A stretch of 63,421 bases of DNA from NCBI GenBank assembly GCA_964650515.1, contig CAZYUB010000013.1:1-63421 (forward strand), in the 5' to 3' direction. Position numbers and translations under genes: made by a program. Positions 776 to 29,768 of this stretch are shown here, one piece after another. Within the stretch, counting starts at the first letter, position 1; each line of letters starts with the position of its first letter. The DNA comes from an uncultured Planctomycetia bacterium. Lineage in GTDB: Bacteria > Omnitrophota > Gorgyraeia > Pluralincolimonadales > Pluralincolimonadaceae. Below the pieces are notes generated by a model. It was given only the letters and a program-made list of their open reading frames with translations, was not told where the DNA came from and ran no database searches.

Positions 776-776
776 C

Positions 777-1176: not shown

Positions 1177-1179
1177 AAC

Positions 1180-1255: not shown

Positions 1256-1270
1256 GAGGAGAAATATTAA

Positions 1271-1588: not shown

Positions 1589-1601
1589 AGATAATGAAGG
1601 C

Positions 1602-1676: not shown

Positions 1677-1684
1677 ATAAAAAT

Positions 1685-2119: not shown

Positions 2120-2149
2120 TACGAATAGACTTATACAGATTAAATAATT

Positions 2150-2223
2150 TTCCAACAACTCAATCCAGCGGACGTTCATAGCGGCTTCGCCGCTATGCCC
2201 GCCGCTGATTTCGGGCGTTATGG
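2150..2223 (+). repeat. attC site, divergent type
   Basis: TTCCAAC-AACTCAATCCAGCGG...CCGCTGATTTCGGGC-GTTATGG; internal hairpin CATAGCGGC-TTC-GCCGCTATG. Confidence 0.93.
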
Positions 2224-2256
2224 GAAGATAATTTTTAATCCAGAAAGACATAATAT

Positions 2257-2745: not shown

Positions 2746-2760
2746 TGAAGAAATATAAAC

Positions 2761-2835
2761 CCATAACATTTCACTCCAGCGGACTGTCCCAGCATCCTGT
2801 TTTAAGGGGCCAGCCGCTGAGTTCAAACGTTAGCT
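2761..2835 (+). repeat. attC site
   Basis: CCATAAC...GTTAGCT, shared backbone. Confidence 0.95.
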
Positions 2836-2843
2836 GAAGGAAA

Positions 2844-3182
2844 ATGGATAAAATAACAAAAAATAGAACGACAATATTGATCTATGGTATTTTATCCGCC
2901 ATATTGTTTGTGCTTATCTTTATAAAGGAATCGGCGCCATCCGGGGATGTGCCAAAGGCATGGGTGCATGGTGTTACATATGTTTTGCCGTTAGCTTTAG
3001 GATCTATGATATTCGGTTGGATTGGTATTATAAGGCTTATAATATTAACTAAAAGTCTTGGTTTGAAACAAGTATTTAGAGATATAAAAACAATCATCTC
3101 AGGAATATTACTATTGCCAGCCGTATATTTGACTGTGCAAATGATCAGAATAATAGTTATTTCAATGAAACAGAGCAGCTAA
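2844..3182 (+). CDS. Cassette hypothetical membrane protein (3 TM)
   Basis: Three hydrophobic helices; TAA stop inside R''. Confidence 0.8.
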   Translation: MDKITKNRTTILIYGILSAILFVLIFIKESAPSGDVPKAWVHGVTYVLPLALGSMIFGWIGIIRLIILTKSLGLKQVFRDIKTIISGILLLPAVYLTVQMIRIIVISMKQSS

Positions 3183-3251
3183 CATCTTACTCCAGCGGAC
3201 TGTCCCAGCGTCCTGTTTTAAGGTGCCACCCGCTGAGTTCAATCGTTATGC
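3177..3251 (+). repeat. attC site
   Basis: AGCTAAC...GTTATGC, shared backbone. Confidence 0.95.
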
Positions 3252-3694
3252 ATAAAATAATAAAATATATAAAAAATCTTTATAATAATAACTCAAATAA
3301 GAAGTGCGTTATTCATCCAGATATAAGCGCACTGAACATATGCAATGGATGTAAGAAATACTACTGCAAAAATTGTTTGACTGAAGGCCTCAAATATTAT
3401 TATTGCGCCTCACGAGAATGCCGAAAATTATATCTTCAAGAATTAGATTATGCAAATAATCCAAGGTTTTGCCAGAAATGCATTTCAGAAACAACAGAAG
3501 AATCAGCAGGGAATATAGTTACTGTAAATGGCATTTTCGGAGAAAATCTATATGATGAAACGCATCGAGATTGCCCAATTTGCGGTGCCGTTACCTGTGA
3601 AAAAGTAGGCACATTTGGGCGGTACAAAGCTTCATATAAGGTAATATGGCTTAATGATGAAAGAACAAAATTTATATCAAGGAAAATAAAATAG
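3248..3694 (+). CDS. Cassette Cys-rich Zn-finger protein (B-box-like plus second Zn ribbon)
   Basis: C-x2-H-x7-C-x2-C-x4-C-x2-C-x9-C-x4-C, then CxxC...CxxC; ATG embedded in R'. Confidence 0.7.
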   Translation: MHKIIKYIKNLYNNNSNKKCVIHPDISALNICNGCKKYYCKNCLTEGLKYYYCASRECRKLYLQELDYANNPRFCQKCISETTEESAGNIVTVNGIFGENLYDETHRDCPICGAVTCEKVGTFGRYKASYKVIWLNDERTKFISRKIK

Positions 3695-3768
3695 CATAAC
3701 ATTTCACTCCAGCGGACCGCGCCAGGTATCTTTTAGCAGGGCTTGGCCGCTGAGTTCAATCGTTAGCA
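3694..3768 (+). repeat. attC site
   Basis: GCATAAC...GTTAGCA, shared backbone. Confidence 0.95.
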
Positions 3769-3780
3769 GGGGATAATAAT

Positions 3781-4041
3781 ATGACAGGATGCCCGCAAAG
3801 CAATAGGACATATGACAAAAAAGAAGATAAATGTGCGAATTGCGGGCATAGCGAATTCCCAGGGCCGGTCATATCAAGCAGCCCGATTAATGCTAATCCC
3901 GAAGATCAATTAGGATCATATAAATTCTTTGCAGCCTGGCGCAATATAGAAAAAACAAAATTGGGTAAGGCATTGTCAATTATTGCGATATTAGTAGCCA
4001 TTATAATCGCAATATTGATGGTTTTGGCACTGAAAAAGTAA
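3781..4041 (+). CDS. Cassette small Zn-ribbon-like protein with C-terminal TM anchor
   Basis: C...CANCGH at N-terminus; hydrophobic tail ALSIIAILVAIIIAILMVLAL. Confidence 0.7.
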   Translation: MTGCPQSNRTYDKKEDKCANCGHSEFPGPVISSSPINANPEDQLGSYKFFAAWRNIEKTKLGKALSIIAILVAIIIAILMVLALKK

Positions 4042-4048
4042 ATGGGAC

Positions 4049-4122
4049 TGCTAACATTTCACTTCAGCGGACCGCGCCAGCGTGTCTATAGGGGGCTCGG
4101 CCGCTGAGTTCAATCGTTAGCC
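4049..4122 (+). repeat. attC site
   Basis: TGCTAAC...GTTAGCC, shared backbone. Confidence 0.95.
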
Positions 4123-4142
4123 ATAATAAATAAAATAATATA

Positions 4143-4171
4143 TTGTATATACATTTGTAATATGATATAAT
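4143..4171 (+). promoter_or_regulatory. sigma70 promoter of BrnT/CopG cassette with palindromic operator TGTATATACA (4144-4153)
   Basis: TTGTAT-17-TATAAT with TG extension; ATG begins 7 nt after the -10. Confidence 0.8.
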
Positions 4172-4177
4172 CTATCC

Positions 4178-4435
4178 ATGAAAGAATCGCGCTGGGATCT
4201 TACTAAGAATGAACGATTAAAGAGGATAAGAGGAGTTTCTTTTGATGATTTAATAAATTCAAAGCTAGTATGCATTCTGGAACATCCGGTTAGGAAGAAC
4301 CAGAAATTAATGTTATTTGATTACAAAAAATATATCTGGGTAGTTCCGGTCATAGAAGAAGAGGATTATTACTTTTTAAAAACGCTATACCCAAGCAGAA
4401 AATACACAAAACAATTTAAAGGAGAAATAAAATGA
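4178..4435 (+). CDS. BrnT-like ribonuclease toxin
   Basis: W(D)xxKNExLKxxRGVSF...LKTLYPSRK signature; upstream of CopG-type antitoxin. Confidence 0.85.
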   Translation: MKESRWDLTKNERLKRIRGVSFDDLINSKLVCILEHPVRKNQKLMLFDYKKYIWVVPVIEEEDYYFLKTLYPSRKYTKQFKGEIK

Positions 4436-4680
4436 AAAAGATCAAATTAACCTCAGAAGAGAGAAAAATTGAAAAGGATTTGCTAGAAGGAGTCTATAAA
4501 CCGGTTTCAGAAAGCGATTTTCGCGCCATGTCGGAATCAATTGCTCGTAGAAGAAAAGATGCAGTATTGAATATTAGAGTCAATAGCAAAGACTTGGAAT
4601 ATATTAAACACAAAGCTAGAAAGCTCGGGATAAAATATCAAACATTTATTTCAGAAATTATTCACAAGGTGGCATTATAA
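4432..4680 (+). CDS. BrnA/CopG-family antitoxin (C-terminal RHH)
   Basis: KDAVLNIRVNSKDLxxIKxKAxxxGIKYQTFISEIIH; AGGAG RBS; overlaps toxin stop. Confidence 0.88.
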   Translation: MKKIKLTSEERKIEKDLLEGVYKPVSESDFRAMSESIARRRKDAVLNIRVNSKDLEYIKHKARKLGIKYQTFISEIIHKVAL

Positions 4681-4684
4681 AAAG

Positions 4685-4759
4685 GGCTAACATCTCACTC
4701 CAGCGGACTGTCCCAGCTCCCTGTTTTAATGGGCCAGCCGCTGAGTTCAATCGTTGGCC
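4685..4759 (+). repeat. attC site
   Basis: GGCTAAC...GTTGGCC, shared backbone. Confidence 0.95.
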
Positions 4760-4809
4760 GTAATAATATGAAAAATAGAATAACAACCGATATCCCTGCC
4801 TGATTCGTC

Positions 4810-4838
4810 TTGATAATTGAAAGATAACCTGATAAAAT
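4810..4838 (+). promoter_or_regulatory. Putative sigma70 promoter of R-M cassette
   Basis: TTGATA-17-TAAAAT with TG extension; ATG begins 7 nt after the -10. Confidence 0.65.
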
Positions 4839-4844
4839 GAAGCC

Positions 4845-5576
4845 ATGAACGAGAACGAAATCCTTAAAAAATTACCTAATCTCACCGAAAGAGCCGTTTC
4901 AAGTTATTGGCAAACGAGAACTTCTCAGCGCAAAAAACAAAAGAAATCAGGAAAGGCTGATCAAGGGCTTCGTAGCGCCGTCACTGGCGGCGCACAGATG
5001 GACGGTTTCATCAATATATTCACGGAATTAGCTTTGCATGCAGGTATCCCAAAAGACTGCATATTTCGAAAAAAAGCCGTTGAGCTTCCCGGGTTTTTTA
5101 GACCTACCAAAGAGTGGGATTTACTTATTGTATGCAAAAACACTCTTATCGCCGCAATCGAAGCTAAGTCGCAGGTTGGTCCTTCTTTTGGGAACAATTT
5201 CAATAACAGAACAGAAGAAGCAATAGGCAGCGCCCTGGATATTTGGACAGCCTTTCGAGAAAAAGCATATCTTGAAAGCCCGCAACCGTTTCTTGGCTAT
5301 TTTTTTATGCTAGAAGATTGCGAAGCGTCAAATCAACCCGTCAGCGTAAACGAACCCCACTTTAAAGTATTTCCTGAATTTATCGGTGCATCATATATGC
5401 GCCGTTATGAGCTATTTTGCCGTAAACTTGTTTTAGAGAGACATTATACAGCTTCTACTTTCATTACCTCATCGGCTATAAACGGTCTCAAAGGCTCTTA
5501 TAAAACACCGGCCGACGATCTATCAATGGAACGCTTTGCGAAGGTGTTGCTTTCTCACATAGCAACCTTCAGGTAA
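4845..5576 (+). CDS. Type II restriction endonuclease, XhoI/PaeR7I family
   Basis: LPGFFRPTKEWDL...IEAKSQVGPSFGNNFNNRTEEAIGSA family motif with PD-(D/E)xK core. Confidence 0.88.
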   Translation: MNENEILKKLPNLTERAVSSYWQTRTSQRKKQKKSGKADQGLRSAVTGGAQMDGFINIFTELALHAGIPKDCIFRKKAVELPGFFRPTKEWDLLIVCKNTLIAAIEAKSQVGPSFGNNFNNRTEEAIGSALDIWTAFREKAYLESPQPFLGYFFMLEDCEASNQPVSVNEPHFKVFPEFIGASYMRRYELFCRKLVLERHYTASTFITSSAINGLKGSYKTPADDLSMERFAKVLLSHIATFR

Positions 5577-5580
5577 AACT

Positions 5581-6531
5581 ATGCCTACAACGCACAGATT
5601 AATCAACGGAGATGCGCGAGACCTATCTTTCTTAGATGATGGATCGGTACATCTTGTTGTCACATCTCCACCCTACTGGAACCTAAAACGCTACAACGAA
5701 AGTCCAGACCAGATGGGGCATATTCAAGATTACGAGATATTTTTAAAAGAACTGGAAAAAGTATGGAAACAGGCATTTCGCGTTCTCGTGCCCGGTGGCC
5801 GATTAGTATGTGTGGTTGGAGACGTCTGCGTAGCTAGAAAAGATTATGGACGACATTTAGTATTTCCGCTTCATGCGGATATTTGCGTACTATGTCGAAA
5901 AATCGGTTTTGACAATCTAAACCCGATCATATGGCATAAAATATCCAACGCCTCATATGAAGTGAATAACGGCTCAAAGTTTTTAGGAAAACCATACGAA
6001 CCCAACGCTATCATAAAGAATGATATGGAGTTCATCCTTATGCAGCGCAAGCCGGGGGGATATAGAAAACCATCCTATGCTCAACGAAAAGCAAGCAAAA
6101 TTCCTAAAGATAAATTTAATCGTTGGTTTCAACAAATATGGAATATCCCTGGGGCATCAACTAAACATCACCCGGCTCCATTTCCATTAGAGCTGGCGGA
6201 TCGTCTAGTGCGCATGTTTTCATTTGTTGGTGACACAGTATTGGATCCGTTTTGCGGTTCTGGCACAACCATGGTTGCCGCATTAAAGTCGGGCCGAAAC
6301 AGCATAGGAATAGAAATCGATCCTGAATATTGTAAAATGGTCGCTCGAAATGTAAGGTCCGAATTAAGCAACCTTTTTTCAAGCGATACATTTATCTTCG
6401 AGAAAGACGCAAAAGAAAATAAAGTTCCCTACATAAAATGTGAAGATATTTATAATATTCGCCCACCTAAAAATAAATTAAAAGAGGCCAACATTTCACT
6501 CCAGCGGATCCGCCTTGCGGCGGACCGCTGA
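5581..6531 (+). CDS. DNA amino-methyltransferase, beta class (N4-C/N6-A)
   Basis: Motif IV TSPPY near N-terminus, HPAPFP, motif I VLDPFCGSGTT near C-terminus; last 15 codons lie inside attC. Confidence 0.92.
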   Translation: MPTTHRLINGDARDLSFLDDGSVHLVVTSPPYWNLKRYNESPDQMGHIQDYEIFLKELEKVWKQAFRVLVPGGRLVCVVGDVCVARKDYGRHLVFPLHADICVLCRKIGFDNLNPIIWHKISNASYEVNNGSKFLGKPYEPNAIIKNDMEFILMQRKPGGYRKPSYAQRKASKIPKDKFNRWFQQIWNIPGASTKHHPAPFPLELADRLVRMFSFVGDTVLDPFCGSGTTMVAALKSGRNSIGIEIDPEYCKMVARNVRSELSNLFSSDTFIFEKDAKENKVPYIKCEDIYNIRPPKNKLKEANISLQRIRLAADR

Positions 6532-6546
6532 GTTCAATCGTTCTCC
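6486..6546 (+). repeat. attC site (short, overlapped by MTase 3' end)
   Basis: GGCCAAC...GTTCTCC; internal CCGCC-TTGC-GGCGG hairpin. Confidence 0.93.
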
Positions 6547-6564
6547 GTAATTATAATATAATGC

Positions 6565-6593
6565 TTGACATAGTATACATTAATGTGTATACT
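6565..6593 (+). promoter_or_regulatory. sigma70 promoter of Phd/RelE cassette with operator AGTATACA-N6-TGTATACT (6572-6593)
   Basis: TTGACA-17-TATACT; perfect 8-bp inverted repeat covers spacer and -10. Confidence 0.85.
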
Positions 6594-6619
6594 TATCCTT
6601 GATAAAGGAGGACGTGCAA

Positions 6620-6892
6620 ATGACCCATACCATTACATTAAAAGCTTTACGCCCTGGATTACCTAAAGTAGCTAGCGCTATAGCATCGAGATACGACCGC
6701 TATATTGTTACAAAACGCGGCAACCCCGTCATGATGCTTATCAATCCGGAAGATTTTGAAGGACTTCTCGAAACAATAGAAATTCTTTCCGACAAAACTG
6801 CCTTAAGACGCATAAAAAAAGCAAGAAAAGAAGCGGAAGCCGGCAAGACCGTCACACTTGCAGAACTAAGGCGTCGGATCGAGCGTGTATAG
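6620..6892 (+). CDS. Phd/YefM-family antitoxin
   Basis: AAGGAGG RBS; IVTKRGNPVMMLINPEDFEGLLETIEILSD motif. Confidence 0.9.
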   Translation: MTHTITLKALRPGLPKVASAIASRYDRYIVTKRGNPVMMLINPEDFEGLLETIEILSDKTALRRIKKARKEAEAGKTVTLAELRRRIERV

Positions 6893-7145
6893 TTTGGAAT
6901 TTGGCAGGCAGGTCGGAAGAGATCTGAAAAAAGTATACCATTCCGACAAAGCGCTATATCAAAGATTTATCAACGCATTTGAAGATATGGCGAGATCTCC
7001 TGAACAGGGGAAGAGGCTTCACGGTAAGCTCTCAGGCTTGTATTCCCACAGAATGGGAAGCTATAGGATTATATACGAAGTTTATCACTCAAAGCTATTG
7101 GTTATCATTCTAGATTTGGGCCATCGTAAAGATGTCTATCGATAA
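6885..7145 (+). CDS. RelE/ParE-family toxin
   Basis: GKRLHGKLSGLYSHRMGSYRIIYEV...LGHRKDVYR; GTG start overlaps antitoxin. Confidence 0.9.
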   Translation: MYSLEFGRQVGRDLKKVYHSDKALYQRFINAFEDMARSPEQGKRLHGKLSGLYSHRMGSYRIIYEVYHSKLLVIILDLGHRKDVYR

Positions 7146-7146
7146 A

Positions 7147-7395
7147 ATGAAAAAGATTAAACTGACTTCAGAAGAAAGAAAGATCGAAAAAAATCTCTTA
7201 GCTGTGGTTTATAAGTCCGCTTCGGCCAGCAAATTCCATGCTGTATCAGAAGCGATTGCGCATAGGAAAGAGGATGTGCTAAAGGAAATGCAAGAAAATC
7301 TAACAGACAGAAAAGTTATCGATAAATTTGAAGCGGAAGAACGCGCTAAAAATGTACGTTTTTATACGGCTGATGAAATACGGAAAAGAATATAA
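7147..7395 (+). CDS. Chimeric antitoxin-like protein (BrnA-type N-terminus plus RelB/Phd-like acidic-basic tail)
   Basis: 30 of the first 43 aa are identical to the 4432-4680 antitoxin; the RHH domain is replaced by ENLTDRKVIDKFEAEERAKNVRFYTADEIRKRI. Confidence 0.75.
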   Translation: MKKIKLTSEERKIEKNLLAVVYKSASASKFHAVSEAIAHRKEDVLKEMQENLTDRKVIDKFEAEERAKNVRFYTADEIRKRI

Positions 7396-7399
7396 AAAC

Positions 7400-7476
7400 G
7401 GAGAACATTTCACTCCAGCCCTCCGCAGTTTTGCTGGCGCAAAACTAAACGCGAGGGCTGGGTTCAAATGTTGGGC
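7400..7476 (+). repeat. Terminal attC site
   Basis: GGAGAAC...GTTGGGC; internal AGTTTTGC-TGGC-GCAAAACT hairpin. Confidence 0.9.
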
Positions 7477-7490
7477 TTTAGGAGAAGATA

Positions 7491-8081
7491 ATGTTTGATG
7501 ACATACCGCAGGGCATCCTTAACCGGATGAAGGAGCTTGAGCAGATCGACGCTCAAGATCGAGCTGACGGCACAGCCCGACTTGAGCGCCTTCGCCAGAT
7601 TCCCCCGGAGACAGGCAAGTTTATCGCGCTTCTTGCCGCAACCGCTCCTGCAGGACGATATCTTGAGATAGGAACCAGTGCAGGCTACTCCACTCTCTGG
7701 CTCGCGCTGGCGTGTCGCCTAGTCGGTCGAAGGATCACAACATTCGAAGTCCTTGACCAGAAGGTTAAACTGGCACGTCACACATTCGAAAGGGCAGGTG
7801 TCGGCGATGTCGTGGACCTCATCCACGGCAATGCCCTTGGCTATCTCCCCGGTTGTTCCGACGTGTCATTCTGTTTTCTCGACGCAGAAAAGGATATCTA
7901 CGCCGAGTGTTACGAAGTCATTGTCCCCAATATGGTGCCTGGCGGCATTCTTGTTGCCGACAACGCCATCAACCATGAGAAGGCGCTTCGGCCCATGCTG
8001 GACCGGGCATTGACCGATGACCGCGTGGACGCGCTCATCGTCCCGATCGGAAAAGGCGAACTGGTGTGCAGGAAGAAATGA
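7491..8081 (+). CDS. SAM-dependent O-methyltransferase (YrrM/COMT-like)
   Basis: [16 protein letters not shown] motif I; FCFLDAEK; ILVADN. Confidence 0.9.
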
Positions 8082-18713: not shown

Positions 18714-19214
18714 ATGAAGAACATAATACTTGTGGGATTCATGGGGACCGGCAAGACGGCGGTCGGCAAGGCGCTGGCCAAGCGCCTTGGGCTCAGGTTC
18801 GTCGATATGGACGATATTATCGAGGAACGCGAGGGCATGAAGATATCCGAGATCTTCGAGAAGAAGGGCGAGAAATACTTCAGGCATTCCGAGAGCAAGG
18901 TCGCCAGGGACATCGCCCTGCAGACCGGGCTTGTCGTCGCCGTGGGCGGCGGCGCCGTAATCGACGATGAGAACGTCAGGAACCTGAAATCCAACGGGGT
19001 GATGTTCTGCCTTGTCGCAGCGCCGGAGACGATATTCGCCAGGACGAAGGGCCATACTCACAGGCCGCTGCTGAATGTCAGCGACCCGAAGGAGAAGATA
19101 GCCAAACTCATGGCCAAGCGCGCCGAGTATTACGCGAGGGCCGATTACAGGATAGATACCGGGAACCTTTCGGTAGAGGGCGTCGCAGATAAAATAATGG
19201 AGCTCATCAAGTGA
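18714..19214 (+). CDS. aroK: Shikimate kinase
   Basis: GFMGTGKT P-loop, GGGAV, HRPLL. Confidence 0.96.
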   Translation: MKNIILVGFMGTGKTAVGKALAKRLGLRFVDMDDIIEEREGMKISEIFEKKGEKYFRHSESKVARDIALQTGLVVAVGGGAVIDDENVRNLKSNGVMFCLVAAPETIFARTKGHTHRPLLNVSDPKEKIAKLMAKRAEYYARADYRIDTGNLSVEGVADKIMELIK

Positions 19215-20332
19215 CGGAACTCGAATACCTTATCGCGCTGAATTCCGTACCCGATGTCGGGTATGTAAGGATAAAGAACCTCATAGCGCGTTTTGGAGGT
19301 ATCGAAGCTGTTTTCAAGGCGACGAGAGAACAGCTTGAGGAGACGGAAAAGATAGGCCCGAAGATCGCCTCCGCGATAGCGGGCTGCGACAAGGAGAAGG
19401 CCCTGGAAACAGAGCTTAAGCTCGCCGCGGCTTCAGGCGCGAGGATAATATCCTATTTGGACGACGAATACCCGGCGAACCTGAAACAGATCTACGACCC
19501 TCCGGCTGTATTATACATCAAGGGCGCGTTCGGGCCCGAGGACAAGTTTTCGGTGGCGATAGTCGGCTCGCGCAGGGCAAGCCGTTACGGCCTGCAGACC
19601 GCCGAGAGGTTCGGCATGGAATTCGCCGCGCGCGGAATGACCGTGGTGTCTGGCCTGGCCAGGGGGATAGACGCGGCCGGGCACAGGGGCGCCCTGAAGG
19701 CGAAGGGAAGGACTGTCGCCGTGCTGGGCAGCGGGCTCGCGAACATATATCCGCCGGAACATGCGGAGCTCGCCGGCAGCATACTTGACGGCGGCGGCGC
19801 GATAATTTCAGAATTTCCGATGGCATGCGAGCCGTATAAGGATAATTTCCCGAGGAGGAACAGGATAATAAGCGGGCTCTCGCTCGGCGTCGTGGTCGTA
19901 GAGGCCGCGAAGGGATCGGGCGCGCTCATAACGACCGACTTCGCGCTCGAACAGGGCAGGGAGCTCTTCGCCGTGCCCGGCAACGCCGGCTCGGTTACAT
20001 CCGCGGGAACGAACACGCTGATAAAGCAGGGCGCTAAGCTTGTCGAATCAGCCGACGATGTCATCGAGGAACTCGGTGACATGATAAAAGGGCATATGAG
20101 GCCGTCCGCCGCGATAACGCCGCGCGCCGCCTCATACCGCGCATCAGGGCTTGAAGGGCCGCAGAAGAAGGTCCTTGAATCCCTCGGGGATACGCCGGTC
20201 TCGGTAGACGAGATAATTGACGGCACGCAGCTGGACGCTCCGGAGGCGGTAGGAGCGCTCGTGAAGCTCGAGATATTAGGGCTGGTCGAACGGCTGCCAG
20301 GGCAGTCATACGTCAGGAAAGGCACATCATGA
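19211..20332 (+). CDS. dprA: DNA-processing protein DprA
   Basis: AIVGSR, SGLARGID, FPRRNRIISGLS, EAAKGSGALIT, C-terminal winged helix. Confidence 0.96.
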   Translation: MTELEYLIALNSVPDVGYVRIKNLIARFGGIEAVFKATREQLEETEKIGPKIASAIAGCDKEKALETELKLAAASGARIISYLDDEYPANLKQIYDPPAVLYIKGAFGPEDKFSVAIVGSRRASRYGLQTAERFGMEFAARGMTVVSGLARGIDAAGHRGALKAKGRTVAVLGSGLANIYPPEHAELAGSILDGGGAIISEFPMACEPYKDNFPRRNRIISGLSLGVVVVEAAKGSGALITTDFALEQGRELFAVPGNAGSVTSAGTNTLIKQGAKLVESADDVIEELGDMIKGHMRPSAAITPRAASYRASGLEGPQKKVLESLGDTPVSVDEIIDGTQLDAPEAVGALVKLEILGLVERLPGQSYVRKGTS

Positions 20333-20526
20333 AGATATGCGTTAACGGAAAAGATATCCAGGCGGAAGACGGCCTAACCATTGCCGCGCTCATAACGCAG
20401 CTCAAGGCCGACGTAAAATACGCCGCGGTAGAGCTGAACCTCGAGATAATCGACAGGGCGTCTTATAGTTCCGTTAAGCTCAAGGACGGCGACAAGGTGG
20501 AGATAATATTGCCCGTCGGCGGCGGC
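20329..20526 (+). other. thiS: ThiS/MoaD-family sulfur-carrier domain with internal GG motif (part of topA ORF)
   Basis: MKICVNG...AVELNLEIIDR...LKDGDKVEIILPVGGG matches the ThiS consensus over its full length. Confidence 0.88.
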
Positions 20527-22530
20527 GCACCTTCGGGCGCGCTCGTCATCGTGGAGTCGCCGGCAAAGGCGAAGACCATAGAGAAGTTCCTCGGTAAGGG
20601 TTTTATTGTCCGGCCTTCCATGGGCCATGTCATAGACCTGCCGATGAGGAAGATGGGCGTAGATATCGAGAACAACTTCCAGCCGAGCTACGTCGTGATA
20701 GCGAAGAAGAAGAAACTGTTAAGCGAACTGAAGGCGGAAGCGAAAGACAAAGACGTCGTATATATAGCGACCGACCCTGACCGCGAAGGCGAAGCGATCG
20801 GCTGGCACCTCGCGTCGCACCTCGGCAAGAACAAAGAGGTAAAGAGGGTCGTATTCCACGAGATAACGAAGAAAGCGATCCTCGAGGCGTTCGATAACCC
20901 TGCAGAGATAGATACCAAGCTCGTGAACGCGCAGCAGGCGCGCCGCGTGATCGACAGGATAGTCGGGTACTCGTTGAGCCCGCTCCTCTGGAAGAAGCTG
21001 ACCCGCGGCCTAAGCGCCGGGCGCGTGCAGTCGATCGCGGTGAAGCTGATCGTGGACCGCGAGCGTGAGATAGAGAAGTTCGTCCCGCAGGAGTATTGGG
21101 AGGTGGAGGCCGAATTAAAGAAGCACAAGGACCGCAAGACCTTCTTCGCGCAACTCGATAAGATAGACGACAAGAAGGCCGAGGTCAAGGACAAGGCCAC
21201 AGCCGACGCGATATTATCGGAACTGCAGGGCGCGAAGTATAAGGTAAAGGATATAAAACAGTCCGAGAAGAAACTGAACCCGCAGGCGCCTTTCACGACG
21301 TCGAAGATGCAGCAGGAGTCATTCAACAAGCTGCATTTTAGGGCCGGCAAGACGATGAAGATAGCCCAGCAGCTTTACGAAGGCCTTGATATCGGCAAGG
21401 AGGGCACCGTCGGCCTCATCACTTACATGAGGACCGACTCGGTAAAAGTGGCATTCTCCGCCATCGAGGAAGCGAGGTTCTATATCAAGGACAAGTTCGG
21501 CGCGGAATATTTGCCTGCGGCGGCGAATGAATACAAATCCAAGAAGGCCGCGCAGGAAGCCCATGAGGCGATAAGGCCCACCTCGGTCGCGAGGGAGCCG
21601 GAATCCGTCAAGGAATACCTTTCGCAGGACCAGTACCGGCTGTACAAGCTGGTATGGGCGAAATTCGTCTCGAGCCAGATGAAGCCCGCGATAATATCGG
21701 TGGTATCGGTGGATATAGAGGCGGGCAGGTGCATGTTCAGGGCGTCCGGCTCGACAGTCGTATTCCCCGGGTTCAAGGCCGCGTATGATATAGAAGAAGA
21801 AGGCGAACCCGCCGACAAGAAGAAGTCGTACCTTCCGAAGCTGGAAGCGGGCGAAGCGCTGGACCTCGTCAAGATAGACCCCACACAGCATTTTACGAAG
21901 CCGCCGCCAAGGTATACGGACGCGTCGCTGGTCAAGGCGCTCGAGGAGGACGGCATAGGCCGCCCCTCGACCTACGCGCCGACCATCGAGACGGTCGTCG
22001 CGCGATTTTACGTCAGGCGCGAGGGATCGGCCCTCTGGCCGACCGAGCTCGGCACGGTCGTCAACGACCTGCTGACGAAGAGCTTCCCTGTCATAATCGA
22101 CGAAGAGTTCACCGCGAAGATGGAAGAGGAGCTCGACGATATAGAAGAGGGAAAGGTCGAGTGGACCACGGCATTGAAAGATTTCTACGGCCCGTTCTCG
22201 CAATGGCTCTCGAAAGCCCAGGTGGAGATGAAAGAGGTCAAGAAGGACGTCGAGGAACTCAATGAGGTATGCGAGAAGTGCGGCCGCAAGATGATAGTCA
22301 AGTGGGGCAGGCGCGGCAAGTTCAAGAGCTGTTCGGGATTCCCGGAATGCAAGAACGCGAAACCGATGGTCACCACGGGCATAAAATGCCCCGAGCCAGG
22401 ATGCGACGGCGAGCTCGTCGAGCGCCGTTCCCGCCGCGGCGCGTTCTACGGGTGCTCGCGCTTCCCAACGTGCAGGCATGTGGAGAATAAGCCAAAACAG
22501 ACAGAGGAAAAACCGACGGAGCAAACTTGA
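20329..22530 (+). CDS. topA: DNA topoisomerase I with N-terminal fused ThiS-like ubiquitin-fold domain
   Basis: aa 1-66 ThiS-like ending VGGG; then LVIVESPAKAKT TOPRIM, ATDPDREGEAI, SAGRVQS, LITYMRTDS and two C4 Zn ribbons. Confidence 0.95.
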   Translation: MKICVNGKDIQAEDGLTIAALITQLKADVKYAAVELNLEIIDRASYSSVKLKDGDKVEIILPVGGGAPSGALVIVESPAKAKTIEKFLGKGFIVRPSMGHVIDLPMRKMGVDIENNFQPSYVVIAKKKKLLSELKAEAKDKDVVYIATDPDREGEAIGWHLASHLGKNKEVKRVVFHEITKKAILEAFDNPAEIDTKLVNAQQARRVIDRIVGYSLSPLLWKKLTRGLSAGRVQSIAVKLIVDREREIEKFVPQEYWEVEAELKKHKDRKTFFAQLDKIDDKKAEVKDKATADAILSELQGAKYKVKDIKQSEKKLNPQAPFTTSKMQQESFNKLHFRAGKTMKIAQQLYEGLDIGKEGTVGLITYMRTDSVKVAFSAIEEARFYIKDKFGAEYLPAAANEYKSKKAAQEAHEAIRPTSVAREPESVKEYLSQDQYRLYKLVWAKFVSSQMKPAIISVVSVDIEAGRCMFRASGSTVVFPGFKAAYDIEEEGEPADKKKSYLPKLEAGEALDLVKIDPTQHFTKPPPRYTDASLVKALEEDGIGRPSTYAPTIETVVARFYVRREGSALWPTELGTVVNDLLTKSFPVIIDEEFTAKMEEELDDIEEGKVEWTTALKDFYGPFSQWLSKAQVEMKEVKKDVEELNEVCEKCGRKMIVKWGRRGKFKSCSGFPECKNAKPMVTTGIKCPEPGCDGELVERRSRRGAFYGCSRFPTCRHVENKPKQTEEKPTEQT

Positions 22531-23411
22531 TAGACAGGTATATCGAGAAGTTCATTAGGTACCTTGAGATAGAGCGTAACGCCTCGAAGCATACGCTCGT
22601 GAACTATTCCATAGACCTTAAATCCCTGCGAGAGTTCCTGAAGGAAGAGCCGATAGAGAAGGTCGATTACGTCTCGTTGCGCAGGTATCTCGCGCACGTG
22701 AAAGAGACGAACCTTTCGAAGGTCTCGATAGCGCGCAAGATCGCCTCGATAAGGTCGTTCTTCAAGTTCCTTTTCAGGGAAGGCATAATCAAGAACAACC
22801 CCGCGTCGTCGCTCTCGACGCCAAAACGCGACAAGCACCTGCCGAAATTCCTCGATGAAAAAGAGATTGTCCTGCTGCTCGAATCGCCGGGGAAAGAGGA
22901 CGAGGCCGGGCTGCGCGACGGCGCGATACTCGAGACGCTCTATTCGACCGGCATCAGGGTCAGCGAGCTCGTAGGGCTGAACACCGATACCGTCGACCAG
23001 ATAGGCGGCGTCATAAAGGTCTACGGCAAGGGCAAGAAGGAGAGGATCGTGCCGATAGGCGACAGGGCCCTGCAGGCGATAAGGGATTACCTGAAAAAGA
23101 GGCGCGCCTCGAATACCAAAGATACGCACCCGGGAAAGGCGCTGTTTTTCAACAAGAACGGAGGCCGCCTGACGGACCGTTCCGTAAGGCGGATAATAAA
23201 CAAATATATAACCAAGACAAGCATACAGCAGAAGATATCCCCGCACACCCTGCGCCATTCGTTCGCCACGCACATGCTTGACCACGGGGCGGACCTCAGG
23301 AGCGTGCAGGAGCTTTTGGGGCACGCGAACCTTTCCACGACCCAGATATATACGCATATAACTACCGAAAGGCTCAAGTCCGCGTACACTAAAGCGCATC
23401 CGCGGGCCTGA
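22527..23411 (+). CDS. xerC: Tyrosine recombinase XerC
   Basis: RD-x-AILETLYSTGIRVSEL, GKGKKER, HTLRHSFATH, LLGH, TQIYT; dprA-topA-xerC synteny. Confidence 0.93.
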   Translation: MIDRYIEKFIRYLEIERNASKHTLVNYSIDLKSLREFLKEEPIEKVDYVSLRRYLAHVKETNLSKVSIARKIASIRSFFKFLFREGIIKNNPASSLSTPKRDKHLPKFLDEKEIVLLLESPGKEDEAGLRDGAILETLYSTGIRVSELVGLNTDTVDQIGGVIKVYGKGKKERIVPIGDRALQAIRDYLKKRRASNTKDTHPGKALFFNKNGGRLTDRSVRRIINKYITKTSIQQKISPHTLRHSFATHMLDHGADLRSVQELLGHANLSTTQIYTHITTERLKSAYTKAHPRA

Positions 23412-24699: not shown

Positions 24700-25784
24700 G
24701 CGACAGCATCAAAAGATATTTCCTTTCCCTGATGTCCGATGATCCCGAGGCGCGCGGCATCGTTTCGGAAATCCTCAAATGGCTGCTGTACGAGCTGTCT
24801 TTTGTGTACGGTTCGGCGCTTGCGATCGCGAGAGCCGGCGCGAAACCCTACCGTCCCCGCGGATGCAAAGTCATCAGCGTCGGCAATATCACTCTCGGCG
24901 GGACGGGCAAGACGCCCCTTGTCGCCGCGATAGCGCGAAGGTTCAGGCAGGAAGGGAAGAAGGTGGTTATCCTTTCACGCGGTTATATGACGGACGCGAA
25001 GACCGGGATAGCGGATGAACCGGAATTCTACAGGAAGACGCTCGGGGGCGTGCCTGTTATAACGGGCCGCGACAGGGCCGCTTCGGCGAAAGAGGCGGAG
25101 GCGAAATATTCCCCCGGCCTGCTGCTTCTCGACGACGGGTTCCAGCACTGGAACCTCGCGAGGGACCTTGATATAGTCACCGTAGATGTGAACAACCCTT
25201 TTGGGAACGGGAGTTTGCTCCCGAGAGGAATACTCAGGGAGCCGGTCTCTTCCCTGAAGAGGGCCGGCGTGGTCGTGATCACGAAAGTCCTCCCCGATAT
25301 GTCGAGCCTCGGCAAGGCCGAGGCGTTAAAAAGCAGGATCAGGAAGGAGAACCCCGGCGCGCAGGTCTTCAACGCGTCATATTGCGCGCGGCGCCTGTAT
25401 GACGCCACGGGTGGGTACGAGACGTCACCCGACGCGATAAACGGGAAACAGGTGGCGTTGCTATGCGCGATAGGGGACCCGCGTTCGTTCGAGGATACCG
25501 TAGTGTCTACGGGTGCCATTGCCGCGGCGCGGTATTATTTCATCGACCATCATATATTCAACGCGGCGGAGATCGGGCGCATGATGAAGGAATGCAGGGA
25601 TAAGGGCATCGATACTATCGTAACGACCGAGAAGGACCTACCTCGCATAAAGAATTCAGGTATGGCACCGGCCTTGACCGGAGAATTTGGTGTCCGGATA
25701 CTCGCGCTTTCGGTCGATCTCGTAATAGACAAAGAGGAGCAATTTTTTGGCGGACTGGATACTCTATTTACTCGTAAGGGCTGA
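24696..25784 (+). CDS. lpxK: Tetraacyldisaccharide 4'-kinase
   Basis: SVGNITLGGTGKTP, LSRGY, LDDGFQH, GILREP. Confidence 0.95.
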   Translation: MSDSIKRYFLSLMSDDPEARGIVSEILKWLLYELSFVYGSALAIARAGAKPYRPRGCKVISVGNITLGGTGKTPLVAAIARRFRQEGKKVVILSRGYMTDAKTGIADEPEFYRKTLGGVPVITGRDRAASAKEAEAKYSPGLLLLDDGFQHWNLARDLDIVTVDVNNPFGNGSLLPRGILREPVSSLKRAGVVVITKVLPDMSSLGKAEALKSRIRKENPGAQVFNASYCARRLYDATGGYETSPDAINGKQVALLCAIGDPRSFEDTVVSTGAIAAARYYFIDHHIFNAAEIGRMMKECRDKGIDTIVTTEKDLPRIKNSGMAPALTGEFGVRILALSVDLVIDKEEQFFGGLDTLFTRKG

Positions 25785-27681
25785 GGCCTCCGTATTCCGC
25801 CTCCTGCCGCTCAGGTTCTCGCTTTGGGCGGCGAGGTCTTTCGGGAGTTTGGTATATTTCACGATGGGTCGCCGCAAGACCGTCGCGTACGCGAACCTGC
25901 GCGCCGCGTTCAGGGGCAGGTATACGCCCGCGCAGCTCGACGGTATCATAAAGGACGTATACAGGAATATCGCGCAGTCATATATGGAACTGCTGAAGTT
26001 CCCGCAGGTCGATGATAAATACATAAAGAAATATATAAAGATAGAAGGCCACGACAAGGTAAAAAAGGCGGTCGCTGAACAGGGCACCGGCGTCATTTTT
26101 CTTACGGCGCATTTCGGCAACTGGGAGCTTAGTTCGCTGATCGGCTCGGGTTCCGGATATAAGATGAACGTGCTCGCCCGCTGGCAGAAGATGGAGAAAC
26201 TTAACGGCTACCTGAACAAGATGCGCGGCTCGAAGGGCGCGCATGTCATATTCAAGGAGAACGCCGTCGAGGAGATCCTCGATTCCCTGAACAGGAAGGA
26301 AGCGGTCGGCATACTCTCCGACCAGGACGGCGGCAAAAAAGGAGAGCTCGTCGGGTTTCTCGGGCGCAGGGCTTCCACGCCGAAGGGTGTCGCGCATTTT
26401 TCGCTGAGGACCGGCGCGCCGGTATTCCCGGTCTTCATCGTCAGGGAACACGGGCCTTACCACAGGATAGTCGTCGAGGACGATATATCGGTGATGCGTT
26501 CCGATGACCTCGAAAAAGACGTGCATGAGATACTCCAGAGGTTCGCGGATGGCCTCGCGAAATATGTCACGAAATACCCCGGGCAGTGGCTCTGGCTGCA
26601 TAAGCGCTGGAAGTCCACGCCGACAAAATTCGTCCTCGTGCTCAATGACGGCAAGGCGGGCCATTACAAGCAGTCGCTCGCGCTCGCGCGCATGATAAAG
26701 GACGCGCGCGCCGCGAAGGGGTACCTGCCGGACGATACCGCAATCGGGGCCGTTGATGTGAAGTTCAAGAGCGCCTCCGCCAGGGCCGTTTTCGATCTCG
26801 GGTCAAAAATAGGGCTGGGCATACACGCGCTTTCGGTATGTTTCGAAAAGGAAAGCTACGAGGCCTTGAGGTCGTCATATGCCGATTACGTCGTATCATG
26901 CGGCTCTTCGCTCGCGGGAGTGAACCTGTCACTTAAGAAGGAACTGGGCTCCAGGTCCGTCGTGATAATGAAGCCTAACATATTCGACATAAAGTATTTC
27001 GACCTTGCGGTGGTCCCGGCCCACGACAGGGTGAAACCGGCGAAAAACACCGTCTTCACCAAGGGCACGGTCACCGGACTCGACGCGGCGGCCCTGCGCG
27101 GTTACGCAGCGCGGCTCAACGAAAAGGTAAAGATAACGAAGAAAAAAGTCATCGGCGTGCTTATAGGCGGCGACTCGAGGGACTACGTGCTCGAGAAGGA
27201 GCTCGCGGTTGAGGTCATGGACGGAGTCCTGCGCGCCGCGGAAGAGATAGACGCCGAGGTGCTGGTCACGACGTCGCGAAGGACGCAGAGGGCGGTCGAG
27301 TTCGCGCTGAAGGAGCGTTACGGCAAGTCCGGCAGGATAAAGATGCTGCTGATAGCCAACGACGGGAATTTCGAGGGCGCGATAGAAGGGATATTGGGGC
27401 TGTCAGGATTGCTGGTAGTATCCGGGGAATCAGTCGCTATGCTGACAGAAGCGGTAAGCTCGGACAGGCCGGTCATAGCGTTCATGCCCCGCAAGATAAG
27501 GCCGCGTTCAGCGTCGAAACTGGAGAGGTCGGTGGCCAATCTCGAGAAAGAGGCGCTGATAAAGGTATCAACACCCGCGGAGATAGCGAAGGATATAGCC
27601 CATTATATCGGCCACGAACCGGCCGCGGTCTCGGACGGCGATATCGCGGCCGTGCGCGCCGCGTTGGATAAAATAATATGA
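25747..27681 (+). CDS. Fusion: lipid A late acyltransferase (LpxL/HtrB family) plus ELM1/GtrOC1-like domain
   Basis: TAHFGNWE, ILSDQD, QWLWLHKRWK, then LVLNDGKAGH...DLAVVPAHD...VTTSRRT...VSGESVAMLTEA. Confidence 0.88.
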   Translation: MADWILYLLVRAEASVFRLLPLRFSLWAARSFGSLVYFTMGRRKTVAYANLRAAFRGRYTPAQLDGIIKDVYRNIAQSYMELLKFPQVDDKYIKKYIKIEGHDKVKKAVAEQGTGVIFLTAHFGNWELSSLIGSGSGYKMNVLARWQKMEKLNGYLNKMRGSKGAHVIFKENAVEEILDSLNRKEAVGILSDQDGGKKGELVGFLGRRASTPKGVAHFSLRTGAPVFPVFIVREHGPYHRIVVEDDISVMRSDDLEKDVHEILQRFADGLAKYVTKYPGQWLWLHKRWKSTPTKFVLVLNDGKAGHYKQSLALARMIKDARAAKGYLPDDTAIGAVDVKFKSASARAVFDLGSKIGLGIHALSVCFEKESYEALRSSYADYVVSCGSSLAGVNLSLKKELGSRSVVIMKPNIFDIKYFDLAVVPAHDRVKPAKNTVFTKGTVTGLDAAALRGYAARLNEKVKITKKKVIGVLIGGDSRDYVLEKELAVEVMDGVLRAAEEIDAEVLVTTSRRTQRAVEFALKERYGKSGRIKMLLIANDGNFEGAIEGILGLSGLLVVSGESVAMLTEAVSSDRPVIAFMPRKIRPRSASKLERSVANLEKEALIKVSTPAEIAKDIAHYIGHEPAAVSDGDIAAVRAALDKII

Positions 27682-29768
27682 AGATAATCCAGATACTTCC
27701 GTCATTGAGCATGGGAGGTGTCGAGACGGGCGTCGTCGACCTGTCGGAGCGCCTTATCAAGCTCGGGCACAACGCCGCCGTCATATCGGGCGGCGGGGAG
27801 CTCGTAAAAAAACTCGAGGCCGCCGGCATCAAGCACTACACGCTCCCGGTCGAAAAAAAGAACCCGCTTACGATACTGCGCATGATACCGGCCGTCTGCA
27901 GGATACTACGCTCGGAGAAAGCCGATATCCTGCACGCGCGCAGCAGGGTCCCCGCGATGATCGGCTATTACGCCGCCCGCAGGGCAGGCGTGGTGTTTAT
28001 AACCACGTGCCACGGGTACTATTCGAAAAAGCCGTTCAGCAAGGTGATGGGATGGGGCAAATATGTCATCGCGATAAGCCAGGTGATCGCGAAGCATATG
28101 ATGGATTCGTTCAAGGTGCCTTACAGGCGGATAAAGCTTATATACCGCGGGGTGAACCTCGAGCAGTTCAAGTTCAGGGAACCCGACGAATCCGTAAAAA
28201 GCGATTACACTATCGGGATAATCGGCAGGCTCACGCCGCTGAAAGGGCACGCGTATTTCTTCAGGGCGGCGGCGAAGGCCCTCAAATATTTTCCTCGGCT
28301 TAAGGTCCTCGTCGTGGGCGACGCGTCCCCCGGCAAGGAGAGGTACAGGCAGGAGCTGAAGGATACAGTTCGGAGGTTAGGCCTCGAAAAGCACGTGGAG
28401 TTCCTCGGCCGCAGGAGCGACATCCCGGAGATACTCGCGGGGCTCGACCTGCTTGTACTCGCGACGACGGTCCCGGAAGGATTCGGCAGGGTCATCATCG
28501 AGGCGTTCGCCGCGGGAGTGCCGGTCGTCGCGACGAGCGTCGGCGGAGTGACCGAGATAATCCGCGACGGCGTGAACGGCCTGCTCGTTCCGCCCGAAGA
28601 CCCGCAGGCGATGAGCGACGCGATCGTAAGGGTGCTTAAGGACAGGGCGCTTACGAAAGGGATCGTGCGCAACGCGAGGAAGGACGCGGAGGAGAAGTTC
28701 AACCTCGACAGGATGATAACCGAGACCGTCCGTGTCTACGAGGAAGCGCTCGAGCGGAAGAGGATACTCGTCATCAAGATAAGCGCGGTCGGAGATTGCG
28801 TGCTCGCTACGCCGTCACTGCGCGCGATACGGCAGAAGAACCCTAAGGCATATATTGCCCTGCTTACCGGCAGGATGGAGAGCCAGGCCCTCAAGGGATG
28901 CCCCTACGTGGACGAGTTCATAATATATGACAGGACCGGCCGCGACAGGGGATGGCTCAGGTTCCTCGAGCTTGCCGCGGAAGTCAGGCGATACTGCTTC
29001 GAGGAAGTCGTGGACCTGCAGAACAATTCGAAGAGCCATATATTCGCGATAATGAGCACCGCGACGAAGAGGTACGGTTACAGGAAGGGCTGGCACGGCT
29101 TCCTTCTAAATAAGGCGATAACGGATAACGGGCGCCCGATACCGCCCGTAGACCACCAGTTCAGGGTCCTCTCGCTCATGGGGATCGAGAACGCGCCTAA
29201 GGAACTCGAACTCTGGCCTTCCGCCGCGGACGAAGGATCGGTAAGGGAGATGCTTGAAACGGACTGGGTCGGGGACCAGCAGGCGCTCGTCGCGATAAAC
29301 CCGGGCGCGAGCCCGCGCTGGGCGACGAAGAGGTGGCCCGCCGAAAATTTCGCCAAACTGTGCGACCTGCTCGCGGAAAAAGAGATACGGCCGGTCATTA
29401 TCGGGGCCAAAGCGGATTCGGAGGGCGCGGACCTGATAATATCCATGACAAGGTCGAAGCCGGTGAACCTTACGGGAAAAACCACGATAACGGAACTGGC
29501 CGCGCTGATGAAGAGGATGAAATGCCTCGTTACAAGCGACAGCGCCCCGATGCATGTGGCGGCGGCGATGAAGACGCCGTTCGTCGCGTTGTTCGGCCCC
29601 ACCGACCCGGCAAGGCACCTGCCTCCTTCGCAGGCCTGCGCGGTCGTGCGCAAGGGCCTCAGGTGCGCGCCGTGCTATAAGCCGGTGTGTTCGGATATCA
29701 GGTGCAAGAGGGAGATAGAGGTGGAAGACGTCATGAAAGCGATAGAGAAACTCCTGGCGGCCCGATGA
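27678..29768 (+). CDS. Fusion: GT4 glycosyltransferase plus GT9 heptosyltransferase
   Basis: GGVE...HARSR...EGFGRVIIEA (GT4), then IKISAVGD...KRWP...SDSAPMHVAAA...FGPTDP (GT9). Confidence 0.9.
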   Translation: MKIIQILPSLSMGGVETGVVDLSERLIKLGHNAAVISGGGELVKKLEAAGIKHYTLPVEKKNPLTILRMIPAVCRILRSEKADILHARSRVPAMIGYYAARRAGVVFITTCHGYYSKKPFSKVMGWGKYVIAISQVIAKHMMDSFKVPYRRIKLIYRGVNLEQFKFREPDESVKSDYTIGIIGRLTPLKGHAYFFRAAAKALKYFPRLKVLVVGDASPGKERYRQELKDTVRRLGLEKHVEFLGRRSDIPEILAGLDLLVLATTVPEGFGRVIIEAFAAGVPVVATSVGGVTEIIRDGVNGLLVPPEDPQAMSDAIVRVLKDRALTKGIVRNARKDAEEKFNLDRMITETVRVYEEALERKRILVIKISAVGDCVLATPSLRAIRQKNPKAYIALLTGRMESQALKGCPYVDEFIIYDRTGRDRGWLRFLELAAEVRRYCFEEVVDLQNNSKSHIFAIMSTATKRYGYRKGWHGFLLNKAITDNGRPIPPVDHQFRVLSLMGIENAPKELELWPSAADEGSVREMLETDWVGDQQALVAINPGASPRWATKRWPAENFAKLCDLLAEKEIRPVIIGAKADSEGADLIISMTRSKPVNLTGKTTITELAALMKRMKCLVTSDSAPMHVAAAMKTPFVALFGPTDPARHLPPSQACAVVRKGLRCAPCYKPVCSDIRCKREIEVEDVMKAIEKLLAAR

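Follow-up and report, generated by a model that had tools for sequence, protein, structure and literature searches.

An in-frame fusion of the sulfur carrier ThiS to DNA topoisomerase I in Omnitrophota, a possible precursor cut after Gly-Gly

What becomes of a sulfur-carrier domain when its terminal Gly-Gly is buried in the coding sequence of a DNA topoisomerase? This question is raised by a locus in a 63,421-nucleotide stretch of DNA, hereafter the window, which comprises positions 1 to 63,421 of the forward strand of contig CAZYUB010000013.1 (assembly GCA_964650515.1), labelled as an uncultured Planctomycetia bacterium and placed by GTDB in the Omnitrophota. A first-pass annotation of the window, made from its letters alone, proposed that an intact ThiS domain is fused in frame to the N-terminus of the topoisomerase TopA, and that the start of the fused gene is coupled to the upstream gene dprA through an ATGA overlap. 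We found both proposals borne out: the DNA, the list of open reading frames (ORFs) and the profile matches agree on one in-frame ORF, and its ATG overlaps the dprA stop codon. Gly-Gly is present in the primary translation product but internal, and not at the C-terminus of the polypeptide. The ORF and its parts are as follows.

20329..22530, + strand: fused ORF ThiS-linker-TopA, 733 amino acids, ATG at 20329, stop codon at 22528-22530; the exact protein is present in public collections
20329..20526, + strand: ThiS beta-grasp sulfur-carrier domain, residues 1-66, ending VGGG; TIGR01683
20518..20526, + strand: Gly64-Gly65-Gly66 (GGC GGC GGC), the normal ThiS C-terminus and the proposed cleavage site
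20527..20541, + strand: linker APSGA, counterpart of the short N-terminal leader in normal TopA
20542..20568, + strand: first Toprim strand, LVIVESPAK, beginning directly after APSGA
20542..20865, + strand: Toprim domain of TopA, residues 72-179 (PF01751, 82.6 bits), with Glu76 in LVIVESPAK and the acidic motif DPDREGE
20908..22176, + strand: Topoisom_bac catalytic core, residues 194-616 (PF01131, 428.5 bits), with the active-site tyrosine motif GLITYMRTDS
22381..22497, + strand: the better-scoring of two C-terminal Zn ribbons, residues 685-723 (PF01396, 80 bits over 2 stretches)

The N-terminal part of this ORF is ThiS by every comparison made. Residues 3-66 match TIGR01683, the NCBI equivalog model for ThiS, over positions 1-64 of 64, scoring 67.5 bits within the full-length protein and 70.5 bits for the domain alone, against a cutoff of 37.45; PF02597 matches the same half at 52 bits. 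With an E-value of about 1e-19, the ThiS match is far above chance, and all 17 homologous domains that we tested, whether fused or split, pass the TIGR01683 cutoff (best E 5e-23). The nearest solved structures are ThiS proteins (2K5P/3CWI, 1TYG chain B and 1F0Z). An AlphaFold2 model of the first 165 residues, built from a 7-sequence alignment and used only for its beta-grasp pattern and flexible junction because its overall predicted local distance difference test score (pLDDT) is only 62.7, shows beta-grasp strands and a helix in the ThiS domain at pLDDT 69-92. Furthermore, residues N6, G7, E35, N37, D55, E58 and G64-66 are 100% conserved in 75 free ThiS proteins and likewise in 27 fused ones. 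The ratio of nonsynonymous to synonymous substitution rates (dN/dS) is 0.05-0.24 for the ThiS part, in pairs with dS of 0.2-2.5, versus 0.03-0.12 for TopA, and no degenerate or shortened ThiS occurs among the fusions that we found. These data indicate that the ThiS part is under purifying selection.

The remainder of the ORF is a complete bacterial type IA DNA topoisomerase I. Residues 72-680 match TIGR01051 (topA_bact) with 818.8 bits against a cutoff of 456.4, and Toprim, Topoisom_bac and two Zn-ribbon domains (PF01396 twice) are all present. The Toprim glutamate, the acidic cluster and the active-site tyrosine can each be read in the translation; by comparison with E. coli TopA, we take Glu76 of LVIVESPAK, DPDREGE and GLITYMRTDS to be the catalytic motifs.

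The first-pass annotation had also stated that the ORF crosses the junction with no stop codon and with no internal ATG, GTG or TTG. The first half of this statement stands; the second does not, since an in-frame GTG encodes Val75 (20551-20553) within LVIVE. This GTG is no conserved start: about half of the homologous fusions use GTG for Val75 and the others GTC, GTA or GTT, the codon for Leu72 is CTN in all fusions but one, and no ATG, GTG or TTG is conserved between GGG and the Toprim strand across the fusions compared. The claim that TopA has no start of its own remains correct. The linker measures 4-11 residues in the homologues and in one case 33; it shows no conserved sequence, its abundant residues being Ala, Gly, Ser, Lys, Pro and Glu, and in the AlphaFold2 model residues 62-69, which comprise the ThiS tail and linker, have pLDDT below 50, so that the linker is probably flexible. 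The fusion with the 33-residue linker (L139, ~1417-1995) has a Pro/Lys/Ala-rich segment there, AQGATPPPVPRRKAPLRLQKASSAHGTGGGAKA, with a second GGG just ahead of the Toprim strand.

The glycines behave quite otherwise from the linker that follows them. Loss of Gly-Gly among homologous fusions had been named beforehand as a sign against processing; we found GG(G) in every homologous fusion retrieved by searches that did not require the motif. Specifically, GGG is kept in all of the about 15 fusions from such protein-level searches (P0001-5, P0012, P0121-3, P0126, L137-139, L141 and L142), and it is invariant in the 27 fused and 75 free ThiS sequences.

The fusion is neither an error of assembly nor peculiar to one genome, two concerns that the first-pass annotation had itself raised. 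A search with the first 165 residues returned six independent partial proteins (51-79% identity), each with ThiS and Toprim, and a profile search of 1.84 billion cluster representatives yielded four further proteins spanning both domains. The more than 25,000 other matches in the latter search were to TopA only; set against four fusions, they indicate that the ThiS-TopA architecture is rare overall. A search with the ThiS domain only gave 18 candidates and missed known fusions because of its word-index sensitivity, whereas a 17-sequence alignment query succeeded. At the DNA level, a degenerate junction pattern was scanned against one genome per GTDB species, and the resulting number of fusion-bearing species is a lower bound; a long open ThiS frame runs into TopA on at least 17 contigs from at least 16 genomes. 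A protein-level scan of metagenome contigs, in which GGG was not imposed, added more fusions. Exact look-ups place the same complete proteins on as many as 14 and 17 contigs of independent origin (NCBI, JGI, ENA and Logan). Together, these results demonstrate that the fusion is real and carried by at least 16 species representatives. In public records it is not flagged: three GenBank accessions are named 'hypothetical protein' and IMG fragments 'DNA topoisomerase-1'.

Most of the listed matches to the junction pattern came from Bacillota and were rejected as false positives, in which a Shine-Dalgarno-like GGNGGNGG stands before an ordinary topA with 3-50 open codons upstream. The fusion-bearing genomes are all labelled Candidatus Omnitrophota/Omnitrophica or, in some third-party bins, 'uncultured Planctomycetia'. 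They include a Ca. Omnitrophota metagenome-assembled genome (MAG; JBAZJG01, L045) whose protein is 94-97% identical to that of the window, UBA6215 (DISH01), and the 99%-complete MAG fen_1319 (L028, GCA_003141835.1), named Pluralincolimonas frigidipaludosa, of GTDB order UBA6215, in a survey of the phylum (PMC10066038). The fused proteins fall into two clades, A, which includes the window and whose ThiS part ends '...EIILPVGGG', and B, which ends '...EIVHFVGGG'. Between the two, the ThiS parts are 33-42% and the TopA parts 57-69% identical. The ThiS-TopA fusion is thus conserved in two deep clades of Omnitrophota. Two individual cases deserve mention. One MAG (CAYJSE01) contains two different fusions (L036 at 7103 and L055 at 1994, with linkers AGKQEKS and AAKA), reflecting either a mixed bin or two paralogues. 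One protein (P0121, 389 residues) has a 75-residue Arg/Gly-rich N-terminal extension ahead of the ThiS methionine, for which a wrongly called start in a GC-rich contig is the likeliest cause.

How such a gene could arise can be read from relatives in which the two genes are still apart. In Omnitrophota one gene order, leuA-aroE-pilD-aroC-aroK-dprA-(thiS)-topA-xerC-kdtA-lpxK-lpxL, exists in three states, with thiS absent, separate or fused. In two thiS-less loci (L124 and L125), topA follows dprA directly, starting MKPKGLVIVESP or MSKALVIVESP. In four other relatives, a separate thiS adjoins topA. In L048, thiS ends FVGGG-TAA and is followed after 3 nucleotides by the TTG start of topA (MAKHLVIVESP), for which the GGG codons, GGGGGAGGA, serve on our reading of the sequence as the ribosome-binding site. 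In L140, GGG and a stop are followed by a few codons and then by the topA ATG in the same frame. In L126, thiS ends GGGAR-TGA and overlaps the topA ATG as TGATG, and in L203 the thiS ORF extends 32 residues beyond GGGG and into the start of topA, which is read in a different frame. The existence of such relatives had been listed as a sign of an accidental, one-off arrangement; separate genes do exist, but we read them as marking the origin of the fusion. In length the fusion linkers match the leader of an ordinary TopA, and Ala is the first residue of most of them, as it is of the L126 extension; such junctions are explained if a stop codon was lost or a small indel occurred. We suggest that thiS would have come to lie between dprA and topA in part of the Omnitrophota, abutting or overlapping the topA start, that small indels or stop-codon loss would then have joined the two frames, and that the fusion would later have been fixed in two deep clades. 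In rough neighbour-joining trees of TopA, the split forms branch at the base of clade B or next to it; the trees are compatible with one or two fusion events. The split relatives also make ThiS and TopA separately from the same locus, which indicates that both can work as separate chains.

A further set of relatives bears on the C-terminus of ThiS. The closest free homologues of the ThiS part are ordinary ThiS proteins, and P0289, which at 47% identity is among the nearest, lies within a thiE-thiS-thiG-thiF operon and itself continues beyond the glycines (GGG+LCT). By motif count, 92 of the 119 closest homologues (from proteins P0271-P0285 and P0288-P0405 and loci L122 and L130) end exactly at GGG and 27 carry 1-43 residues after it; these 27 include two topA-adjacent split ThiS (P0308 and P0320), a truncated fragment (P0270) and a spurious match (P0358), so that the share of extended forms among genuinely free ThiS is somewhat below 27/119. 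Extended ThiS proteins were also returned by the ThiS-only search, one of them labelled Candidatus Angelobacter by NCBI. Masked Gly-Gly ends thus seem frequent in this ThiS subfamily, and such proteins, if active carriers, would need trimming after Gly-Gly. This suggests that C-terminal trimming of ThiS may be widespread, a point of which we found no discussion in the literature.

We propose that ThiS-linker-TopA is a precursor that is cut after Gly-Gly, releasing ThiS and TopA, and we put the chance that this is right at about even. An endopeptidase, most plausibly a JAMM/MPN+ metalloprotease, would act just behind the Gly-Gly(-Gly) with which ThiS closes. The released ThiS would then have a free C-terminal glycine open to adenylation and thiocarboxylation, and the released TopA would have a new N-terminus 4-11 residues ahead of the first Toprim strand, like an ordinary TopA. 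For the window, the predicted ends are ...VEIILPVGG(G) for ThiS and APSGALVIVESPAK for the N-terminus of TopA, so that a full-length protein of about 82 kDa would give a ThiS of about 7 kDa and a TopA beginning at Ala67. Cleavage, the protease and a continued role of ThiS as a sulfur carrier, with thiazole or another acceptor, are what we infer from the sequences. The proposal draws on the invariant carrier residues, the GGG, the purifying selection, the variable linker, the split relatives, the extended free ThiS proteins and published precedent; the N-terminal position of ThiS with the GG motif directly at the junction is a feature common to carrier fusions processed at GG. A broader version holds that Omnitrophota make ThiS only as the N-terminal part of TopA, that a GG-peptidase frees both, and that the arrangement had its own origin in neighbouring genes before its fixation in two deep clades; we hold it tentatively, at slightly short of an even chance. 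In a bolder form, the released ThiS might not be a thiamine carrier but might act alongside an E1 resembling MoeB and a JAMM peptidase, as a small protein modifier or a sulfur donor linked to DNA transactions.

Several observations weigh against cleavage. The 63-kb window contains no thiF, thiG, thiH or thiI, no JAB/MPN+ peptidase, no other thi gene or E1-like gene and no thiamine pyrophosphate (TPP) riboswitch. The thiS of both split and fused species sits in a DNA-metabolism operon (dprA-topA-xerC), and not with thi genes. The split forms L126 (GGG+AR) and L203 (GGGG+32 residues) likewise lack a free GG end. Long N-terminal tails occur on other TopA proteins (P0165 and P0178), and because an N-terminal extension is sterically tolerated by TopA, cutting is not required for TopA to work. 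The conservation of GGG could also be explained by a structural or hinge role, and the purifying selection could in part reflect the folding constraint of a domain carried by an essential enzyme.

The thiamine genes of two other Omnitrophota are of mixed import. In a genome survey of the phylum, more than 75% of Omnitrophota are said to encode thiamine biosynthesis, the module being thiC plus thiD only (PMC10066038). We rejected this figure as support for the fusion, since that module, as given there, is silent on thiS and thiG. From that survey we compared the lists of KEGG Orthology (KO) terms of genomes 58 and 231, neither of which is known as a fusion carrier. The list for genome 231 (GCA_023819315.1, Duberdicusellales) contains thiS, which may not be linked to topA, together with topA, thiC, thiE, iscS, moaD, moeB and mec, the last being K21140, a JAMM peptidase; the same list is without thiF, thiG, thiH, thiI and thiO (PMC10066038). 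The list for genome 58 contains thiC, thiH, thiE, thiM and thiL and is without thiS or thiG (PMC10066038). If genome 231 is typical, as far as its list goes, the canonical ThiS partners are missing, a further point against our proposal; the list also hints, weakly, at a carrier that may be served by a MoeB-type E1 and a JAMM peptidase in place of ThiF and ThiG.

Beta-grasp domains have been put to use as adaptors many times over, and the main alternative to cleavage is that ThiS stays attached as a permanent N-terminal beta-grasp module of TopA, serving as an adaptor, in regulation or targeting, or in solubility. No sulfur-carrier chemistry would then be involved, and the ThiS of split species would be a non-covalent partner of TopA. 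This alternative, which we consider unlikely though well worth keeping in view, gains from several of the points just listed: the place of thiS among DNA-metabolism genes in split and fused species alike, the window without a TPP riboswitch, the masked ends of L126 and L203, the tolerance of TopA for N-terminal extensions and the available KO list of genome 231, with thiS and without thiF, thiG or thiH. It is harder to reconcile with the pattern of conservation. At 33-42% identity between clades, the ThiS part is still at equivalog level and has kept exactly the carrier-invariant residues and the three glycines, whereas a pure adaptor should have drifted at carrier-specific positions. In addition, the length of the linker is unconstrained (4-33 residues), and the closest free relatives are ordinary ThiS proteins of thiamine operons.

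The fusion might instead be a tolerated accident, in which ThiS is dispensable, for instance because thiazole is salvaged, and persists as a passenger since a frameshift or stop codon within it would inactivate the essential TopA. Such fusions arise easily where genes overlap by 1-4 nucleotides and a single indel suffices; LpxL with Elm1 and GT4 with GT9 are fused in the same operon, and thiG is not seen in the two Omnitrophota KO lists available (genomes 58 and 231). However, a passenger would gather amino-acid changes, yet dN/dS is 0.05-0.24, the invariant residues are kept in two deep clades, and none of the fusions that we found has a ThiS part that is degenerate or shortened. We therefore regard a mere accident as improbable.

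Two separate products could also be made at the level of translation, either from an internal TopA start for which the GGNGGNGGN codons would act as a Shine-Dalgarno sequence, or by frameshifting or termination that yields ThiS. In favour of this reading, the ribosome-binding site for the topA TTG start of the split locus L048 is formed by its GGG codons (GGGGGAGGA). In the fusions, however, no ATG, GTG or TTG is conserved between GGG and the Toprim strand, there is no in-frame stop after GGG, and the other frames run for ~20-25 codons to a stop without giving a GG end. On these junction sequences we rejected the frameshift, termination and internal-start models, and we consider translation of two products highly improbable.

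Finally, a sequencing or assembly artefact or a pseudogene has next to no probability, given the fused ORF in at least 16 species-representative genomes, the identical proteins on 14 and 17 contigs and the purifying selection, even though one homologue (L001) has a frameshift further inside topA. That frameshift, in the Topoisom_bac region of the gene at 337-2542 (giving 241 and 512 residues), leaves the ThiS-Toprim junction intact and is probably itself an assembly or sequencing error.

How does this protein compare with known systems? Eukaryotic ubiquitin is made fused to the ribosomal proteins eL40 and eS31, and GG-specific peptidases, the dedicated deubiquitinases, free both partners. In its logic this is the closest analogy, since here too a beta-grasp protein ending in GG lies N-terminal to an unrelated housekeeping protein. 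Unlike the ubiquitin precursors, with their conjugation system and deubiquitinases, the fusion shows no evidence of conjugation, and its ThiS part is by sequence a sulfur-transfer protein. The bacterial pairs QbsE/QbsD, HcyS/HcyD and CysO/Mec consist of sulfur carriers with C-terminal extensions and the metalloproteases that trim them. As in QbsE, HcyS and CysO, GG is masked by extra residues in the fusion, and short extensions of this kind are frequent in the closest free ThiS as well; in those three carriers, however, the extension is one to few residues, and here it is an enzyme of 667 residues. Compared with an ordinary TopA of the dprA-topA-xerC block, the fused protein has the same complete type IA topoisomerase in the usual synteny, which is thiS-less in other Omnitrophota, but ThiS and the linker add 71 residues to its N-terminus, and it has no start codon of its own.

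The nearest published relatives by architecture are fusions of MoaD to MoaE. In MoaX of Mycobacterium tuberculosis, cleavage between Gly82 and Ser83 is obligatory for activity (PMC4326299), and DR2607 of Deinococcus radiodurans is cut by a JAMM/MPN+ protease (PMC8832034). Like these, the protein in the window has an N-terminal carrier of the ThiS/MoaD family with Gly-Gly at the junction. In MoaX and DR2607, the partner belongs to the carrier's own pathway, as part of molybdopterin synthase, whereas here it is an unrelated, essential DNA enzyme, and cleavage is a prediction. With a partner from outside the carrier's own pathway, the fusion is in our view a variant rather than a member of the MoaX/DR2607 class. 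Iyer, Burroughs and Aravind described ThiS-ThiG, ThiS-ThiF and MoaD-MoaE fusions in 2006 and proposed release of the GG end by JAB peptidases (PMC1779556). The ThiS-ThiG and ThiS-ThiF fusions, which occur in proteobacteria and others, likewise join a true ThiS in frame to another protein; there ThiS is attached to an enzyme of the thiamine pathway whose gene lies in a thi operon, and here the partner is TopA, in dprA-topA-xerC.

The first-pass annotation knew of no described case. For TopA as the partner this holds: our literature search found no paper linking ThiS or another sulfur carrier with a topoisomerase, and topoisomerase is not mentioned in the 2006 (PMC1779556) and 2007 beta-grasp surveys. 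For the principle it does not, as carrier fusions processed at GG are published (PMC1779556, PMC4326299, PMC8832034). What is new, in that we did not find it described, is a functionally unrelated housekeeping partner; GG-cleaved carrier fusions were already known.

The immediate surroundings of the fused ORF are those of the common synteny. Its two direct neighbours in the window are as follows.

19211..20332, + strand: dprA (DNA_processg_A, 254 bits; DprA_WH), whose TGA stop and the start codon of the fused ORF overlap as ATGA
22527..23411, + strand: xerC-type tyrosine recombinase (Phage_integrase, Phage_int_SAM_1), whose TTG start overlaps the topA stop

An upstream dprA is also present in L001, L126, L124 and L125, and a downstream xerC in L001 and L126. 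In the window, L001 and L126, the neighbours are aroK, dprA, xerC, kdtA and lpxK, and no E1-like, E2-like or JAB gene adjoins thiS-topA in any of the three. Genes of the operon overlap by 1-4 nucleotides, which makes fusions through small indels easy. Further along, an LpxL-like lipid A acyltransferase is fused to an Elm1-like domain (25747-27681), as it is in L001 and L126, and a GT4 glycosyltransferase is fused to a GT9 heptosyltransferase (27678-29768).

Elsewhere in the window, an ORF at 57149-58315 encodes a class-V aminotransferase (Aminotran_5, 113.6 bits), followed by a DsbD_2-like membrane ORF (58351-58986) and a serA-like phosphoglycerate dehydrogenase (59000-60583). The first of these could be either a serC-type aminotransferase or a cysteine desulfurase of the IscS/NifS type; the latter identity, if true, would be relevant to the loading of a sulfur carrier. 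Positions 1-8000 form a low-GC island (37-45% versus 55-60% elsewhere in the window) with hypothetical membrane ORFs, a XhoI-type restriction endonuclease (4845-5576) and an N4/N6 DNA methylase (5581-6531), a Phd/YefM-ParE toxin-antitoxin pair (6599-6892 and 6885-7145), and a small CopG-like ORF (4432-4680) whose paralogue, likewise small, lies at 7132-7395; the island was probably acquired horizontally. All credible genes of the window lie on the + strand except an uncharacterised ORF on the - strand (62700-63365), GC skew is positive throughout, and whole-window scans of the 63 kb detected no Rfam families and no tRNAs.

For the biology of the Omnitrophota, the consequences depend on the fate of the junction. 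The public names ignore the ThiS part, and gene-based reconstructions of the thiamine pathway in this phylum may accordingly score thiS as missing. Because the split, overlapping and fused stages are all alive in relatives, the path to precursors of this kind would be directly readable. If ThiS remains attached, the fusion represents a new N-terminal beta-grasp module on TopA and a new way to regulate or target a type IA topoisomerase. If it is cleaved, the fusion predicts a GG-specific endopeptidase with a defined natural substrate in a phylum of which very few members have been cultured, and a prokaryotic ubiquitin-fold protein would be made as a precursor on an unrelated housekeeping enzyme, a logic so far held to be typical of eukaryotic ubiquitin.

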